A stretch of DNA of 64,000 nt from assembly GCF_044324785.1 (NCBI RefSeq), contig NZ_CP172127.1, one strand, 5' to 3'. Positions 885 through 17,180 of this stretch are shown here, piece after piece. The DNA comes from Escherichia coli. GTDB lineage: Bacteria > Pseudomonadota > Gammaproteobacteria > Enterobacterales > Enterobacteriaceae. The notes under the pieces were generated by a model, which had not been told where the DNA came from, did not search any database, and worked only from the letters and a program-made list of their open reading frames with translations. The position numbers and the translations under genes were made by a program. Within the stretch, counting starts at the first letter, position 1; every line of letters begins with the position of its first letter.

Positions 885-1298
885 CTATTTTGTCTGGTTT
901 TTGGCTTCAAGTAGTTCTTTTAGCAGTAGATCGAAGTGCTCTCTTTTTTCTTTTAGCTCATTGATTAGTTTATTTTTTTCGCTCTCAGGCAGTCCTCTGA
1001 ATAGTTGCAGTAGAGCCTGTTCTTGTGGGGTTAGTTCTTGATTGTAATTACCGGGGTGTAGCGTGGATTCATCCAAATATTCTCCTTCATTCATGAAGAA
1101 AAAATGAACAGGGTATCCGGTCACTTTTGCTAGCTTGTCTAATTTATCTTTTCTTGGCGTTACCCCATTACACCATGCCTGAACTGATTGAGCTGTAACC
1201 CCAATATGGCGAGCTAACTCAGATTGAGACCAGCCTAAGTCTTTTAGAATCCGTTGTAGTCGGCTAGCAAAAGCCATGTTTTTCGTTTTTGTGTTCAT
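885..1298 (-). CDS. Prophage repressor, XRE/HTH_3 family (CI-like), no S24 autopeptidase domain
   Basis: HTH segment WSQSELARHIGVTAQSVQAWCNG. Divergent from a cro-like gene across operator repeats. C-terminal heptad-like tail. The ORF opens at a TTG (1313); ATG 1298 (MNTKTKN) or 1277 (MAFAS) are more likely starts. Confidence 0.8.
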   Translation of the reverse strand: MNTKTKNMAFASRLQRILKDLGWSQSELARHIGVTAQSVQAWCNGVTPRKDKLDKLAKVTGYPVHFFFMNEGEYLDESTLHPGNYNQELTPQEQALLQLFRGLPESEKNKLINELKEKREHFDLLLKELLEAKNQTK

Positions 1299-5998: not shown

Positions 5999-6220
5999 AT
6001 GTTTGGCGATAAACTGGAGTTACCACGGAACGGGCGGATAGTGCTCTATATTTCAGATTACAAAGTAACCAGGGCTGAGGTGTTGGAACCGGAAAAACAT
6101 CTGGTCACGTTACCGGACATTATTGAGTTGTATAAGCGGGTCGGATATGTGGACTTGCATCGCGATGATGTTCCCGTTGAGTGTATGGAATGTGAACACC
6201 GGAGGTTTGAAGTTGATTGA
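5999..6220 (+). CDS. Hypothetical phage protein (73 aa)
   Basis: ORF with GGAGGGAAAGG upstream of the ATG. Confidence 0.5.
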   Translation: MFGDKLELPRNGRIVLYISDYKVTRAEVLEPEKHLVTLPDIIELYKRVGYVDLHRDDVPVECMECEHRRFEVD

Positions 6221-6310
6221 ATTGACTTAGAAAAAGCCCGGGGCTATAGTTTCCGCGCAGCCGCAAAATCGGTTGCCGGGATTGGCGTCCCGGATATCTA
6301 AGTGACGCAT

Positions 6311-6331
6311 AGCCGCGTTAGCGGTTTTTTT
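6311..6331 (+). terminator. Weak intrinsic terminator-like hairpin with a T7 run
   Basis: agccgc-gtta-gcggtt followed by ttttttt. Confidence 0.35.
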
Positions 6332-6430
6332 ATGTGTTAGGCACGGCCACATTCGCATTATGGTGGGCTGTGTGGGGGCTTCTGCGGAAGCGCCGGGTTC
6401 ACTTAGCCGGTTACGCCAACCCTGCACAGT

Positions 6431-6463
6431 TCACCACCAGATGATTGGCGTCGCTGGTGGTGA
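6431..6463 (+). promoter_or_regulatory. 10-bp perfect stem-loop abutting the start codon of the Ant-like gene
   Basis: tcaccaccag (6431-6440) pairs with ctggtggtga (6454-6463), with a 13-nt loop. The right arm carries the only SD-like GGTGG and ends at ATG 6463. Confidence 0.5.
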
Positions 6464-7137
6464 TGAAAAAAACACTAAGTGAGGCCACTGCGATGACAAT
6501 CCAAATATCTGCGGAATCCCTTTCTCCGCTACATCATAACCAACTTCCCGTCATCACTACTGAATTGCTTGCCAGTTTGTATGGCACGGAAGTAAATGGT
6601 ATCCAGCAAAACTTCAAGCGCAACATCGCCAGATTTGTCGTAGGAAAGCATTTTTTTAAGCTGGAAGGTAATGAATTACGCGACTTCAAAAACAGACTGA
6701 CAGATAGTCAGTCAGTTGCTAAACATACCCGATCCCTCATTCTCTGGACAGAACGCGGCGCAGCTCGCCATGCCAAAATGCTGGAAACAGAACAGGCCTG
6801 GGAAGTTTTCGAAAAGCTGGAAGATTGTTATTTTAGCCAGCGTCCAGAGAGGCGGAGTACAACTACCGATGACCGTACTCCCTTACGTGATGCCGTTAAT
6901 ATGCTGGTCGGTAAGAAAGGCATGATGTATCCCGATGCCTACACCATGATTCATCAACGCTTCGCCGTCTCTCACATAGAACAACTGTCACAGACGCAAA
7001 TGTTAGAGGCGATTGAATACATCCACTGCCTGCTACTCGATGAAAATCAACCAACCATTCCAGATCACCACTATCAAAAATGGAAAAGTGACCAGAATGC
7101 GCCATGTTGCCAAAGGCGAACATCTGATGACCTTTGA
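6463..7137 (+). CDS. Antirepressor-like protein with N-terminal ORF6N domain
   Basis: LPVITTELLASLYGTEVNGIQQNFKRNIARFVVGKHFFKLEGNELRDFKN matches the ORF6N pattern. Start is uncertain (6445 TTG, 6463 or 6493 ATG). The last ~30 codons overlap another frame. Confidence 0.7.
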   Translation: MKKTLSEATAMTIQISAESLSPLHHNQLPVITTELLASLYGTEVNGIQQNFKRNIARFVVGKHFFKLEGNELRDFKNRLTDSQSVAKHTRSLILWTERGAARHAKMLETEQAWEVFEKLEDCYFSQRPERRSTTTDDRTPLRDAVNMLVGKKGMMYPDAYTMIHQRFAVSHIEQLSQTQMLEAIEYIHCLLLDENQPTIPDHHYQKWKSDQNAPCCQRRTSDDL

Positions 7138-7270
7138 CGCTTTCAAAGAGATCGCTGAGCGGGCAGGGTATCTGGTGATCCACAGCGACAATCTGCGAAG
7201 TATGACACTGGATAAATTGATGGTAATGGGGAAAAAGTCTGCTGTATCCGTTGCTGATTCAGCATTTTGA
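7040..7270 (+). CDS. 76-aa ORF overlapping the Ant-like gene by 98 nt in another frame (separate gene or frameshifted C-terminus)
   Basis: MKINQPFQITTIKNGKVTRMRHVAKGEHLMTFDAFKEIAERAGYLVIHSDNL... looks protein-like. The overlapped tail of 6463-7137 (QKWKSDQNAPCCQRRTSDDL) looks like out-of-frame read-through. Confidence 0.4.
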   Translation: MKINQPFQITTIKNGKVTRMRHVAKGEHLMTFDAFKEIAERAGYLVIHSDNLRSMTLDKLMVMGKKSAVSVADSAF

Positions 7271-10898: not shown

Positions 10899-11504
10899 TT
10901 ACTTGCGTTTAAAAAGGTATTTTGTCACGACCAGCACGAGGCCGAATACCTCTGTCAAAGTACCGCCCATGTACAACTGGAGCGTTAAGTCTTTAAATAC
11001 AAGCCATTCAGCACCAGTGGCAAAAAATACACCATTCATTATCAAAAGCTGGCAAGCAAGGATAATAAGGAACCATTTGCCATAGCGTTTTTTTAGATCG
11101 ATTTCAGCTTCAAAATCTTTGTTGTTGAGTTGTTTGCGCTCATGCTCAGTATCAAGTGAATTCACCTGTTTCACAGATGTGAACTCGGTCAAGATTTTAC
11201 TCTCAGTACGGGTGACTTGTTGAGAGGGGGTAGGAATTGGAATTCTTTTGATTGACGCAGCTACAGCCATTTTGCGAGCTTCGGCAGCTCTTTTTCTGGC
11301 TATTCCGTGAATACGGGCAGACGGTTTTTTTGGAGCATGCGAAACCTTTGTCTGAGGTGAAGTTTCGTCAGGAGACTGAACCGGAGTTTCATCCTCCTCC
11401 GGCTCAACCTCTTCTGCTAACTGACGGTGTAGGTTGAGGGAATCCTTCAGTCGGCGTGCAACTTCCTGTTTGAAACGGCTGTTAAAATCGTCATCCGATG
11501 GCAT
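10899..11504 (-). CDS. Orphan membrane protein: ~140-aa charged/Pro-rich N-terminal region plus two C-terminal TM helices
   Basis: Start is 9 nt after the ImmA-like stop. Hydrophobic segments WFLIILACQLLIMNGVFFATGA and LTEVFGLVLVVTKYLF. The N-terminal part is low-complexity with a K/R patch (KKPSARIHGIARKRAAEARK). Confidence 0.7.
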   Translation of the reverse strand: MPSDDDFNSRFKQEVARRLKDSLNLHRQLAEEVEPEEDETPVQSPDETSPQTKVSHAPKKPSARIHGIARKRAAEARKMAVAASIKRIPIPTPSQQVTRTESKILTEFTSVKQVNSLDTEHERKQLNNKDFEAEIDLKKRYGKWFLIILACQLLIMNGVFFATGAEWLVFKDLTLQLYMGGTLTEVFGLVLVVTKYLFKRK

Positions 11505-11513
11505 TCTAAAGCG

Positions 11514-12002
11514 TTACCCCAACCTCAAGTTCTTTAAACGATAAGTCATCGCATCGTCAGATACGCCAAAATGATGCGCCATTATATAACTTGGTTGGCC
11601 GTCAGCGTGCAGTTTTCTGACCTCATCTACCGGCATCAGAAGTTCTGCTGCGAACTTGTTCGCAAAAATTTCATCAGGATGCGTTCCGGCGCTTGCGGTT
11701 TCGCCACGTAAATCAACGTACTCATATTCATCGCTATGCGATGCTTGCCGGGCGATGTAATGCCCCAACTCATGCCCACATGAAAAACGTTGACGAACTT
11801 TGTTGTCATCACTGTTTAGAAAGATCGCTGGATCTTGATCTTTTTGTTTAATCAGTGCGCCAGAAACTTTCCCAGGAAGATCGGTAATAAAAACATCTAA
11901 TCCCATGTCGTGAGCAATTTTCGCTGGATCAACAGGGAAACCACGCCCGCACCAGAACGTGTCCAGCACTCGCCGGGCGTGCTCTCTTGGGTTGGTAGCC
12001 AT
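11514..12002 (-). CDS. ImmA/IrrE-family (M78, DUF955) zinc metallopeptidase
   Basis: HEXXH as SCGHELGHYI, plus the downstream family motif DEIFANKFAAELLMP. GGAGG 7 nt upstream of the ATG. Confidence 0.85.
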   Translation of the reverse strand: MATNPREHARRVLDTFWCGRGFPVDPAKIAHDMGLDVFITDLPGKVSGALIKQKDQDPAIFLNSDDNKVRQRFSCGHELGHYIARQASHSDEYEYVDLRGETASAGTHPDEIFANKFAAELLMPVDEVRKLHADGQPSYIMAHHFGVSDDAMTYRLKNLRLG

Positions 12003-12074: not shown

Positions 12075-12093
12075 AAGTGCAAATTCTGCACTT
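12075..12093. promoter_or_regulatory. Perfect inverted repeat AAGTGCA-aattc-TGCACTT upstream of the ImmA-like operon
   Basis: 7-bp arms with a 5-bp spacer, ~75 bp upstream of the ImmA-like start. A related site lies at 12929-12947. Confidence 0.45.
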
Positions 12094-12435
12094 CTGGTAC
12101 GATATTAACTGTTAGTAGTAAAGTCTTCCAGATAAATCACTTTAAAATCGTGTGAATTGCTTGCTTTTTACGCTGCATTGTGGATGGCTCAATGTTTCCA
12201 GTAAAAACATACATGATAATCATGACATTAGTGGTTTTTTAGGCGTCCATCTGTTTCTTAAAAAAATGGATGCCACAAGCGCCCGGATGAGAACAGGAAG
12301 GGAAGGCTATTACATGTGTGATTTATTACATCTGTAAAAAAATACAGATCTAACCTGATCTTTTCATTGAAGTTTTTCTTGGTCCTGGATAGGATCTGGA
12401 GGTTGCGAAGATTTTAGAGTCGCATCAAAGGGAAA

Positions 12436-13608: not shown

Positions 13609-13719
13609 TGACCATAAACGGTTTAATCCCCTATAAAACCGTTTAATAAAATTCACGACGTGAATATAATTGTTCATTATTCCCTCATTGTATCTGGCGT
13701 TATGACAAATGCCATAAAA

Positions 13720-13739
13720 TACTGTATAAATGTACAGGC
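13720..13739. promoter_or_regulatory. LexA (SOS) box
   Basis: TACTGTATAAATGTACAGGC versus consensus TACTGT(AT)4ACAGTA, with CTGT-N8-ACAG intact. Overlaps a candidate -10 TATAAA (13725-13730) placed 17 nt after ATGACA (13702-13707). Confidence 0.75.
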
Positions 13740-13759
13740 GGTGGCGTTAGGGGGAAGAC

Positions 13760-13939
13760 ATGAATATTCAAGAATCTATAGGCGAACTACCGGAAACATG
13801 CCGGGCTGTTATCAAGCGTAAGGACGGACACATCGTTGGTGTGCGTGTTCTGACTGATGATGAACGGATTGCCAGCCTGATGGCGTTTCTCGAGTTGGCA
13901 GAAATAGCTGGATATACTATTACACCCCCTGACGCGTAA
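13760..13939 (+). CDS. Small protein (59 aa) under the LexA box; candidate SOS-controlled antirepressor
   Basis: ATG 13760 preceded by GGGGGAAG. MNIQESIGELPETCRAVIKRKDGHIVGVRVLTDDERIASLMAFLELAEIAGYTITPPDA. Below the 60-aa cutoff of the ORF track. Confidence 0.6.
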   Translation: MNIQESIGELPETCRAVIKRKDGHIVGVRVLTDDERIASLMAFLELAEIAGYTITPPDA

Positions 13940-14016
13940 AACACGGTATAATATCGGTGCTGGATTGAACACCCGGCACCATTTTCTGAACACTGCCGCG
14001 CCACCTGGAGTTAACC

Positions 14017-14613
14017 ATGGCGCAGCATTCATTTATCAGGGTATCCGGCGGTTCGCTAATACCCGCGACACCAGACACGCAACGCTGGTTGACTGAACGA
14101 GTCAAACCAGGTGCTGTTGTGTATGCAGATTTCAAACAGGCGCGTAATCCCGCGTTTCATCGTAAATTTTTCTCACTTCTCAACCTGGGCTTTGATTACT
14201 GGCATCTCTCCGGAGGGGCTATTTCTCCTGCAGAGCGCGAACTGGTTCACGGCTACGTTAAGTTACTGGCTTATTACGGTGGGCATGGTGATGTCATGGC
14301 TGAGCTGGCTGATCAGTATCTTCTCGATGAGTCGGAAAAGCGCGCGGGGAATATCAGTGCGGTTAAGTCGTTCGAGGCGTTTCGCGCCTGGGCGACTATG
14401 GAAGCTGGATTTTATGACGTTCATCAGATGCCAGACGGCAGTGTGATGCGCGTACCTCGTTCAATCTCGTTTGCTGCGATGGACGATCTTGAGTTCGGTC
14501 AACTGTATTCAGCCGTTTTAGATGTGCTGTGGAATTATATTTTGTTCCGCACGTTTGCCTCTCAGGAGGCCGCTGAAAATGCCGCCGCGCAGCTGCTGGA
14601 TTACACATCATGA
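14017..14613 (+). CDS. DUF1367-like nin-region protein
   Basis: Pattern FKQARNPAFHRKFFSLLNLGFDYW and its position just before a YbcO-like gene, as in lambdoid nin regions. Confidence 0.6.
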   Translation: MAQHSFIRVSGGSLIPATPDTQRWLTERVKPGAVVYADFKQARNPAFHRKFFSLLNLGFDYWHLSGGAISPAERELVHGYVKLLAYYGGHGDVMAELADQYLLDESEKRAGNISAVKSFEAFRAWATMEAGFYDVHQMPDGSVMRVPRSISFAAMDDLEFGQLYSAVLDVLWNYILFRTFASQEAAENAAAQLLDYTS

Positions 14614-15844: not shown

Positions 15845-15935
15845 TAGACTGGCCCCCTGAATCTCCAGACAACCAATATCACTTAAATAAGTGATAGTCT
15901 TAATACTAGTTTTTAGACTAGTCATTGGAGAGCAG

Positions 15936-16301
15936 ATGATTGATGTCTTAGGACCGGAGAAACGCAGACGGCGTACTACACAGGAAAAGATCGCTATTGT
16001 TCAGCAGAGTTTTGAACCGGGAATGACGGTCTCCCTTGTTGCCCGGCAACACGGTGTGGCAGCCAGCCAGTTATTTCTCTGGCGCAAGCAATACCAGGAG
16101 GGAAGTCTTACTGCTGTGGCCGCAGGAGAGCAGGTCGTTCCTGCCTCTGAACTTGCTGCTGCCATGAAGCAGATTAAAGAACTCCAGCGCCTGCTCGGCA
16201 AAAAAACGATGGAAAATGAACTCCTTAAAGAAGCCGTTGAATACGGGCGTGCAAAAAAGTGGATAGCGCACGCGCCCTTATTGCCCGGGGATGGGGAGTA
16301 A
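15936..16301 (+). CDS. insC: IS2 transposase OrfA (InsC)
   Basis: [56 protein letters not shown]..., recognised as IS2 InsC. Confidence 0.95.
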
Positions 16302-17164
16302 GCTTAGTCAGCCGTTGTCTCCGGGTGTCGCGTGCGCAGTTGCACGTAATTCTCAGACGAACCGATGACTGGAAAGATGGTCGCCGCAGCCGTCACTCAG
16401 ATGATACGGATGTGCTTCTCCGTATACACCATGTTATCGGAGAGCTGCCCACGTATGGTTATCGTCGGGTATGGGCGCTGCTTCGCAGACAGGCCGAACT
16501 TGATGGTATGCCTGCGATCAATGCCAAACGTGTTTACCGGATCATGCGCCAGAATGCGCTGTTGCTTGAGCGAAAAACCGCTGTACCGCCATCGAAACGG
16601 GCACATACTGGCAAAGTGGCCGTGAAAGAAAGCAATCAACGATGGTGCTCTGACGGGTTCGAGTTCCGCTGTGATAACGGAGAAAAACTGCGAGTCACGT
16701 TCGCGCTGGACTGCTGTGACCGTGAGGCACTGCACTGGGCAGTCACTACGGGCGGCTTCGACAGTGAAACAGTACAGGACGTAATGCTGGGAGCGGTGGA
16801 ACGCCGCTTCGGCAACGAGCTTCCGGCGTCTCCAGTAGAGTGGCTGACGGATAATGGTTCATGCTACCGGGCTAATGAAACACGGCAGTTTGCCCGGATG
16901 TTGGGGCTTGAACCGAAGAACACGGCGGTGCGGAGTCCGGAGAGTAACGGCATAGCAGAGAGCTTCGTGAAAACGATAAAGCGTGACTACATCAGTATCA
17001 TGCCTAAACCAGACGGGTTAACGGCAGCAAAGAACCTTGCAGAGGCGTTCGAGCATTATAACGAATGGCATCCGCATAGTGCACTGGGTTATCGCTCGCC
17101 ACGGGAATATCTGCGGCAGCAGGCCAGTAATGGGTTAAGTGATAACAGGTGTCTGGAAATATAG
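16259..17164 (+). CDS. insD: IS2 transposase OrfB (InsD; made as an InsCD fusion by -1 frameshift)
   Basis: 301-aa [33 protein letters not shown]... with a DDE region. Overlaps insC in the -1 frame at AAAAAAG. Confidence 0.95.
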
Positions 17165-17180
17165 GGGCAAATCCACAGGT

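Follow-up and report, generated by a model that had tools for sequence, protein, structure and literature searches.

Small antirepressors under SOS control have been demonstrated in the Salmonella Gifsy prophages, and in Escherichia coli, to our knowledge, only Rem, which is not SOS-responsive, has been tested. Tum of coliphage 186 and AntC of N15 are LexA-repressed and inactivate non-cleavable repressors. Work on the Gifsy prophages showed that a repressor bound by an antirepressor came off operator DNA and that the two proteins together behaved as an A2B2 tetramer; GftA and FsoA inactivated GtgR, and GfoA/GfhA inactivated GfoR/GfhR (PMC3121763). Repressor binding and operator release were shown for GfoA, GftA, and FsoA only (PMC3121763), and Rem, which antagonises DicA, was characterised genetically (PMC10448788).

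Herein, we analysed a prophage in a 64,000-nucleotide stretch of E. coli DNA (contig NZ_CP172127.1; the whole 64-kb stretch is referred to as the window), in which a 59-aa gene lies behind a predicted LexA box. The first-pass annotation of this DNA had proposed a LexA-repressed small antirepressor directed against a repressor that cannot cleave itself, and the computational results, namely membership of PHROG 340, a Gifsy-like position, and a GtgR/DicA-type repressor, support that proposal. We consider it probable that the gene, which LexA would silence in the lysogen, codes for a GfoA/GfhA/FsoA-type small antirepressor that would act on the DicA-type repressor. The mechanism is a known one, and the locus would be a fresh example of it with two variations, the lack of dinI and the minimal length of the protein.

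A predicted LexA box overlaps the putative promoter of a 59-codon gene

The following elements were located at and upstream of the gene.

13702..13707, + strand: putative -35 hexamer ATGACA, read directly and invariant across three allele groups
13720..13739, no strand: predicted LexA (SOS) box TACTGTATAAATGTACAGGC, the best LexA-like site in the window
13725-13730: putative -10 element TATAAA, inside the LexA box, with a 17-nt spacer from ATGACA
13750..13757, + strand: ribosome-binding site GGGGGAAG, read directly
13760..13939, + strand: 59-aa gene, GfoA/FsoA-family (PHROG 340) predicted small antirepressor, N-terminally short

The box is composed of CTGT and ACAG half-sites with eight AT-rich bases between them, and it covers both the putative -10 element and the expected transcription start, near 13737. 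The first-pass annotation had described this box with both of its half-sites, a TATAAA element that overlaps it and is placed 17 nt after ATGACA, and a 59-codon ORF whose start codon lies 20 nt from the box, after a ribosome-binding site. The coordinates of the box were exact, those of the two promoter elements were right, and the position of the ORF was confirmed. The promoter ATGACA-17 nt-TATAAA is itself a plausible prediction; the consensus promoter scan passed over it, as the sixth base of its -10 hexamer TATAAA is not a T.

The heterology index, which the first-pass annotation had named as a check, was computed with a substitute matrix derived from a set of 25 E. coli LexA sites and not with the published Lewis matrix, so its scale is approximate and matches published values just roughly. 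On this approximate index, the site at 13720-13739 scored 7.3-8.1, which lies within the range of the 25 training sites (0.5-10.2), and it ranked first among the LexA-like sites on both strands of the 64-kb window. Of 300 dinucleotide-shuffled versions of the window, 1.3-4.7% contained a LexA-like site as good as this one. The pattern CTGT-N8-ACAG occurred twice in the window, compared to 0.65 expected, and 14 of 100 shuffles reached two occurrences.

Other E. coli genomes carry two diverged allele groups of the gene, with 73-76% amino-acid identity and the 59-codon length kept. In both groups the CTGT/ACAG half-sites and ATGACA were unchanged, and the boxes, TACTGTATATATATACAGTG and TGCTGTATAAATACACAGGA, were nearer to the consensus, the box of the window being the weakest among the three alleles. 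A GGGGG run before the ATG was present in all alleles, and also in the dinI leaders of Gifsy-2, mEp237, and an Enterobacter prophage (L020). The conservation of the box and the -35 hexamer among the alleles is consistent with a function but is not proof of it. We considered box conservation as a sign of selection and rejected it: the box was 75-80% identical across alleles, compared to 79-81% for the flanks, so that conservation alone is weak evidence. An upstream hairpin at 13615-13645 (z=-4) was also considered, as a Gifsy-type terminator preceding the box, and was dismissed because the diverged alleles do not preserve the base pairing between its two arms.

At the level of the whole window, six sites had an approximate LexA index of 11 or less, compared to 0.87 expected from shuffles; these include the sites at 13720, 12330, 51725, 27262, 34799, and 50723. 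The one at 12330-12349 is a second LexA-like palindrome, ATCTGTAAAAAAATACAGAT, with an approximate index of 10.7. It is intergenic, located between the ImmA-like operon and a 92-aa gene, has no obvious gene attached to it, and is identical in two further loci (L012 and L013).

The 59-aa protein belongs to PHROG 340 and is N-terminally short

The ORF starts with the ATG at 13760 and its stop codon ends at 13939, giving 59 codons. Between the window allele and the diverged alleles, dS was about 0.75-0.84 and dN about 0.12, with a dN/dS of 0.15-0.16; a ratio of about 0.15 between alleles indicates that the ORF is a real gene and that the short form is under purifying selection. The locus was present in 444 of 5426 complete E. 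coli genomes (about 8%). In the E24377A and ETEC1738 records (two annotations) the gene is annotated as 'hypothetical protein', and among the 15 matches listed, all show two hypothetical proteins and DUF1367 under the match.

The identity of the validated relatives was taken from Table S1 of Lemire et al. 2011 (PMC3121763), which gives the primers used to clone or tag fsoA and gfoA. The fsoA primers encode MNSQQMM... and ...EAGIRFEEISNVG, which are both ends of STM0898.2n of Fels-1, so that the identity of FsoA is fixed. The gfoA primers encode MSNSALQK... and ...RRLGYRVTPPSDI, which match the ORFs of mEp237 and SEN34 and protein P0008 almost exactly, so that the identity of GfoA is settled as well.

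The 59-aa protein matched the phrog_340 profile with E=1.6e-20 over profile positions 13-70 of 85, while FsoA matched it with E=1.1e-26 and the GfoA-like mEp237 gp49 with E=1.4e-20. In BLASTP, it showed 41% identity to FsoA over 39 residues (E=3e-8) and 33% identity to mEp237 gp49 (E=4e-10), and it has a C-terminal GY-x-[IV]-TPP motif in common with the latter. A tblastn search of phage genomes with the 59-aa protein gave weak matches to the Fels-1 ORF, mEp237, and SEN34. When 42 family sequences were aligned, seven residues, P11, G23, R29, L31, E35, F43, and G51, proved near-invariant (conserved in 90% or more of the sequences), and all seven are present in the 59-aa protein. FsoA is the closest validated relative by pairwise identity and belongs to the same PHROG; it has 78 aa, it inactivates GtgR, to which the repressor in the window is 33% identical over its full length, and its gene sits in the early-left operon and is controlled by the repressor of Fels-1 rather than by LexA.

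The full-length family architecture of about 73-87 aa with an N-terminal segment is not that of the 59-aa protein: in alignments, it lacks the 20-25 or so N-terminal residues that all validated members have, so its activity is not guaranteed. A search with the family profile retrieved about 500 clusters across Enterobacteriaceae, nearly all of 73-87 aa and labelled hypothetical. The AlphaFold model of the 59-aa protein consists of a beta-hairpin plus a helix (pLDDT 83). In structural and domain searches, Foldseek of this model against PDB gave nothing below E=1 and no informative structural homologue, a PDB sequence search gave nothing at E<=10, and Pfam assigned no family to the 59-aa protein, FsoA, the GfoA-like protein, GftA, or Rem. 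PF27490 appeared as a precomputed annotation on Rem-like matches from the family profile search.

The gene occupies the Gifsy antirepressor position without dinI

Two features were located downstream of the gene.

13956..13980, + strand: hairpin with an 8-bp stem and a 9-nt loop, followed by AUUUUCU (-14.4 kcal/mol, z=-2.25)
14017..14613, + strand: DUF1367 gene, homologue of Gifsy irsA (STM1020) (Pfam DUF1367 E=5.5e-77; 56% identity to STM1020)

The 59-aa gene is located directly upstream of the DUF1367 gene, and DUF1364 and then Q come next. In Gifsy, irsA is the STM1020 homologue and encodes a DUF1367 protein (primer pp644). The order in Gifsy-2 is LexA box, dinI, gftA, and STM1020, and the same order, with a gfoA-like gene, was found in mEp237, SEN34, and Lelliottia and Enterobacter prophages. 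The locus in the window resembles the Gifsy GfoA/GfhA operon (PMC3121763) in its PHROG 340 gene, in the slot upstream of irsA/DUF1367 in the nin region, in the predicted LexA box at the start of the transcription unit, and in the short DicA-family repressor without an S24 domain. The Gifsy operon has dinI ahead of the antirepressor gene, whereas the gene in the window has no dinI and a box 20 nt from its own start; the Gifsy antirepressor has about 80 aa and a non-canonical start, whereas the protein in the window, in an E. coli host, has 59 aa, an ATG start, and no N-terminal segment, being reduced to the conserved beta-hairpin-plus-helix core.

No DinI-like sequence was found anywhere in the window (tblastn, best E=1.7). 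In Gifsy, deletions of dinI left induction unaffected (PMC3121763). In the Enterobacter prophage L020 (2624-2745), the LexA box is followed by a decayed dinI gene with a premature stop after about 27 codons, whereas the gfoA-like gene is intact, which fits with dinI being dispensable. As the leaders are similar and the proteins begin with MNIQE and MRIEL, we have the impression, and only that, that the 59-aa gene might have originated by an in-frame deletion fusing a dinI start to a gfoA core.

A strong LexA box was present at the operon start in every nin-region locus scanned. Four family members lie in early-left operons; three of them have no strong LexA box, and the fourth, in Fels-1, has one elsewhere. 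This only strong LexA box of Fels-1, TACTGTAAATAAATACAGTG, is located at 829-848 of its locus (L002), inside the region of the repressor gene (fsoR).

The hairpin at 13956..13980 was missed by the terminator scan because its loop exceeds 8 nt. It is a possible leaky terminator after the 59-aa gene, and the DUF1367 gene is possibly co-transcribed with the latter.

Relationship to GftA, Rem, and Tum

GftA of Gifsy-2 has the same slot, from LexA box/dinI to irsA, and the same regulatory logic and repressor class as the gene in the window. It belongs, however, to a different PHROG (4847), with a weak profile link only via GfoA-like proteins (E=0.009), and BLASTP gave no alignment of the 59-aa protein with GftA or with Rem. 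Rem of Qin in E. coli K-12 is likewise a small antirepressor and antagonises a repressor of the DicA family. It can be aligned with PHROG 340, and the search with the family profile recovered proteins like Rem. The 230 nt upstream of rem showed no LexA box, and mitomycin C did not induce dicBp (PMC10448788).

The first-pass annotation had drawn an analogy to Tum of phage 186. With Tum and AntC, which are LexA-repressed antirepressors of non-cleavable repressors, the likeness is one of regulatory logic, and to this extent the analogy holds. It does not extend to sequence ancestry: a tblastn search against 50,697 phage records gave no 186-type match at E<=1, and no sequence similarity to Tum, whose C-terminal half is DinI-like, or to DinI was found.

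The prophage repressor is of the GtgR/DicA type

The immunity region includes the following genes.

885..1298, - strand: prophage repressor, 137 aa long or 130 aa if it starts at the second Met, with HTH_3 as the sole Pfam domain
1370-1627: YdaS-like cro gene, flanking the repressor
1686-2162: YdaT/CII-like gene, flanking the repressor

Pfam detected HTH_3 only and no S24 domain in the repressor, which is a full-length homologue of GtgR of Gifsy-2 (33% identity, E=6e-23) and of DicA of Qin (32% identity, E=1e-17). The earlier statement that it lacks an S24 domain is thus borne out. By analogy with these systems, the repressor is the presumed target of the 59-aa protein. The two genes are 12.5 kb apart, so the antirepressor gene lies outside the immunity region.

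Three prophages of this group all have short HTH repressors of 130-137 aa, and comparing them revealed that antirepressor and repressor alleles assort independently among related E. coli prophages. E24377A has an identical 59-aa gene and a repressor (L021 2425-2832) that is only 33% identical to that of the window, and ETEC1738 has an identical repressor (L022 4834-5226) and an antirepressor allele that is 76% identical. A strict cognate pairing of the 59-aa protein with the repressor is therefore not demonstrated, and the independent assortment fits with the cross-reactivity reported for GfoA/GfhA.

Proposed mechanism and alternative readings

In the lysogen, LexA would bind 13720-13739, where the box covers the gene's own promoter at the -10 region and the transcription start. 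Upon DNA damage, RecA would become active and LexA would cleave itself, allowing the 59-aa gene to be transcribed. The small protein would then bind the repressor (885-1298), a protein of the DicA/GtgR type without a domain for self-cleavage, and take it off its presumed operators (1299-1396), so that the early promoters would be freed; this interaction is extrapolated from the Gifsy work (PMC3121763). The 59-aa gene is most likely the SOS switch of this prophage, an explanation that we favour because of the rank of the box, PHROG 340, synteny, purifying selection, and the type of repressor. If so, recognition of the locus would account for the ability of a widespread group of E. coli prophages with DicA-type repressors to respond to antibiotics that damage DNA, and the minimal 59-residue form would offer a way to map the repressor-inactivating part of the family.

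Three other readings are less likely than this one. It is unlikely that the LexA-controlled antirepressor mainly hits the repressors of co-resident prophages, with the prophage's own induction relying on a 73-aa paralogue or another route. Independent assortment of antirepressor and repressor alleles among E. coli prophages speaks for such a trans-acting role, as does the presence of a second family-340 paralogue in the prophage; but each prophage of the group that was examined has a linked repressor of the short DicA-family kind, without any other evident SOS input, and in Gifsy the antirepressors found at this position do act on the repressor of their own prophage. The gene could also be a decaying remnant, truncated and inactivated when a deletion removed dinI along with the 5ʹ part of a gfoA-like gene, with the box as a fossil of the dinI promoter. 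A length of 59 aa compared to 73-87 aa for other family members, the missing N-terminal segment, the decay of dinI in another locus (L020), and a leader behind the box that is similar to those of dinI (15-20 nt long, GGGGG preceding the ATG) would all be expected from this. We nevertheless regard a remnant as quite improbable, as a dN/dS of 0.15 at a dS of about 0.8 indicates purifying selection on the short form, the 59-aa length is constant in all allele groups, the locus occurs in about 440 of 5426 complete E. coli genomes, and the near-invariant residues are all retained along with a confidently modelled core.

The last of these readings concerns the site itself, which could be LexA-like by chance or unbound in vivo, in which case the gene would be expressed only within the delayed-early PR transcript. 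We hold this to be very improbable: the site lies at the exact position of the LexA box of relatives, better boxes are found there in the diverged alleles, and a LexA box was present in all nin-region homologous operons examined, although 1-5% of shuffled windows had an equally good site, the box is conserved no more than its flanks, and the promoter is imperfect. The SOS-controlled antirepressor thus remains the preferred reading of the 59-aa gene.

Further PHROG-340 modules in the prophage

Additional family members and control elements were located in the early-right region and next to it.

5999..6220, + strand: second PHROG-340 paralogue, 73 aa, early-right region (phrog_340 E=3.5e-21)
6244..6441, + strand: c4-a1b1 targets, isrK, and C4 antisense RNA (Rfam RF03163, RF01394, RF01695, above gathering score)
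6445..7270, + strand: ORF6N-type Ant gene (Pfam ORF6N; phrog_4792 and phrog_340 matches)

The first-pass annotation had counted up to three alternative routes of derepression, through the small gene, an ORF6N Ant-like gene, and an ImmA-like protease. Both of the extra genes are indeed there, but the count needs revision. It was incomplete with respect to antirepressor candidates, since it missed the paralogue at 5999-6220, which was found by tblastn with FsoA (E=0.003) and is conserved in E24377A. No strong LexA-like site lies beside this paralogue; the nearest ranked one is at 6558, with a score of 12.06, inside the ORF6N gene. The ORF6N Ant gene is present, as noted earlier, but compared with E24377A it has lost 11 bp, which shifts the frame and splits it, and a C4/IsrK antisense-RNA element precedes it. 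The C4 and isrK elements upstream of it indicate a control unit like P1 immI or Gifsy-1 IsrK.

The C-terminal 45 or so residues of the ORF6N Ant are a PHROG-340 module (E=4e-13). This module is all that the 59-aa protein has in common with the ORF6N Ant at 6445-7270, as Pfam detected no ORF6N domain in the 59-aa protein. From these profile matches, one and the same module seems to be shared by the large ORF6N antirepressors and the small ones, and the two further family-340 modules in the prophage could do the antirepressor job. It is conceivable, though we are doubtful, that the prophage has three copies of one antirepressor module of about 45 residues, a beta-hairpin with a helix, each with a different input. 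LexA would then act on the 59-aa gene, early transcription on 5999-6220, and the C4/IsrK antisense switch on the C-terminus of the ORF6N Ant. In that case, the module would be a portable 'warhead' of broad specificity, aimed at the C-terminal half that is conserved in DicA-family repressors; the 59-aa protein would be its minimal free-standing form, and the large ORF6N Ant proteins would use it as well.

The ImmA-like protease and other features of the prophage

Two other features of the prophage were located.

11514-12002, - strand: M78/ImmA-like peptidase (best PADLOC match CapP, E=1.6e-25)
~15846-17176: IS2 (insC/insD ORFs 15891-17164), interrupting the Phage_holin_8 gene that directly follows Q

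In this prophage copy, IS2 probably prevents late transcription and lysis. With the holin gene interrupted, derepression may not yield phage, and the copy may be lysis-defective.

The region 10899-12002 (- strand) contains the M78 peptidase gene and then a 201-aa ORF whose function is unassigned. The M78 gene proposed as a further route of derepression does exist, but its best match is CapP. No HTH gene adjoins it, so it does not form an obvious ImmR/ImmA pair for the repressor at 885-1298. CapP belongs with the regulators of defence systems. A palindrome, GTGCAGAATTTGCAC, is located near 12080, in the upstream region of the M78 peptidase gene.
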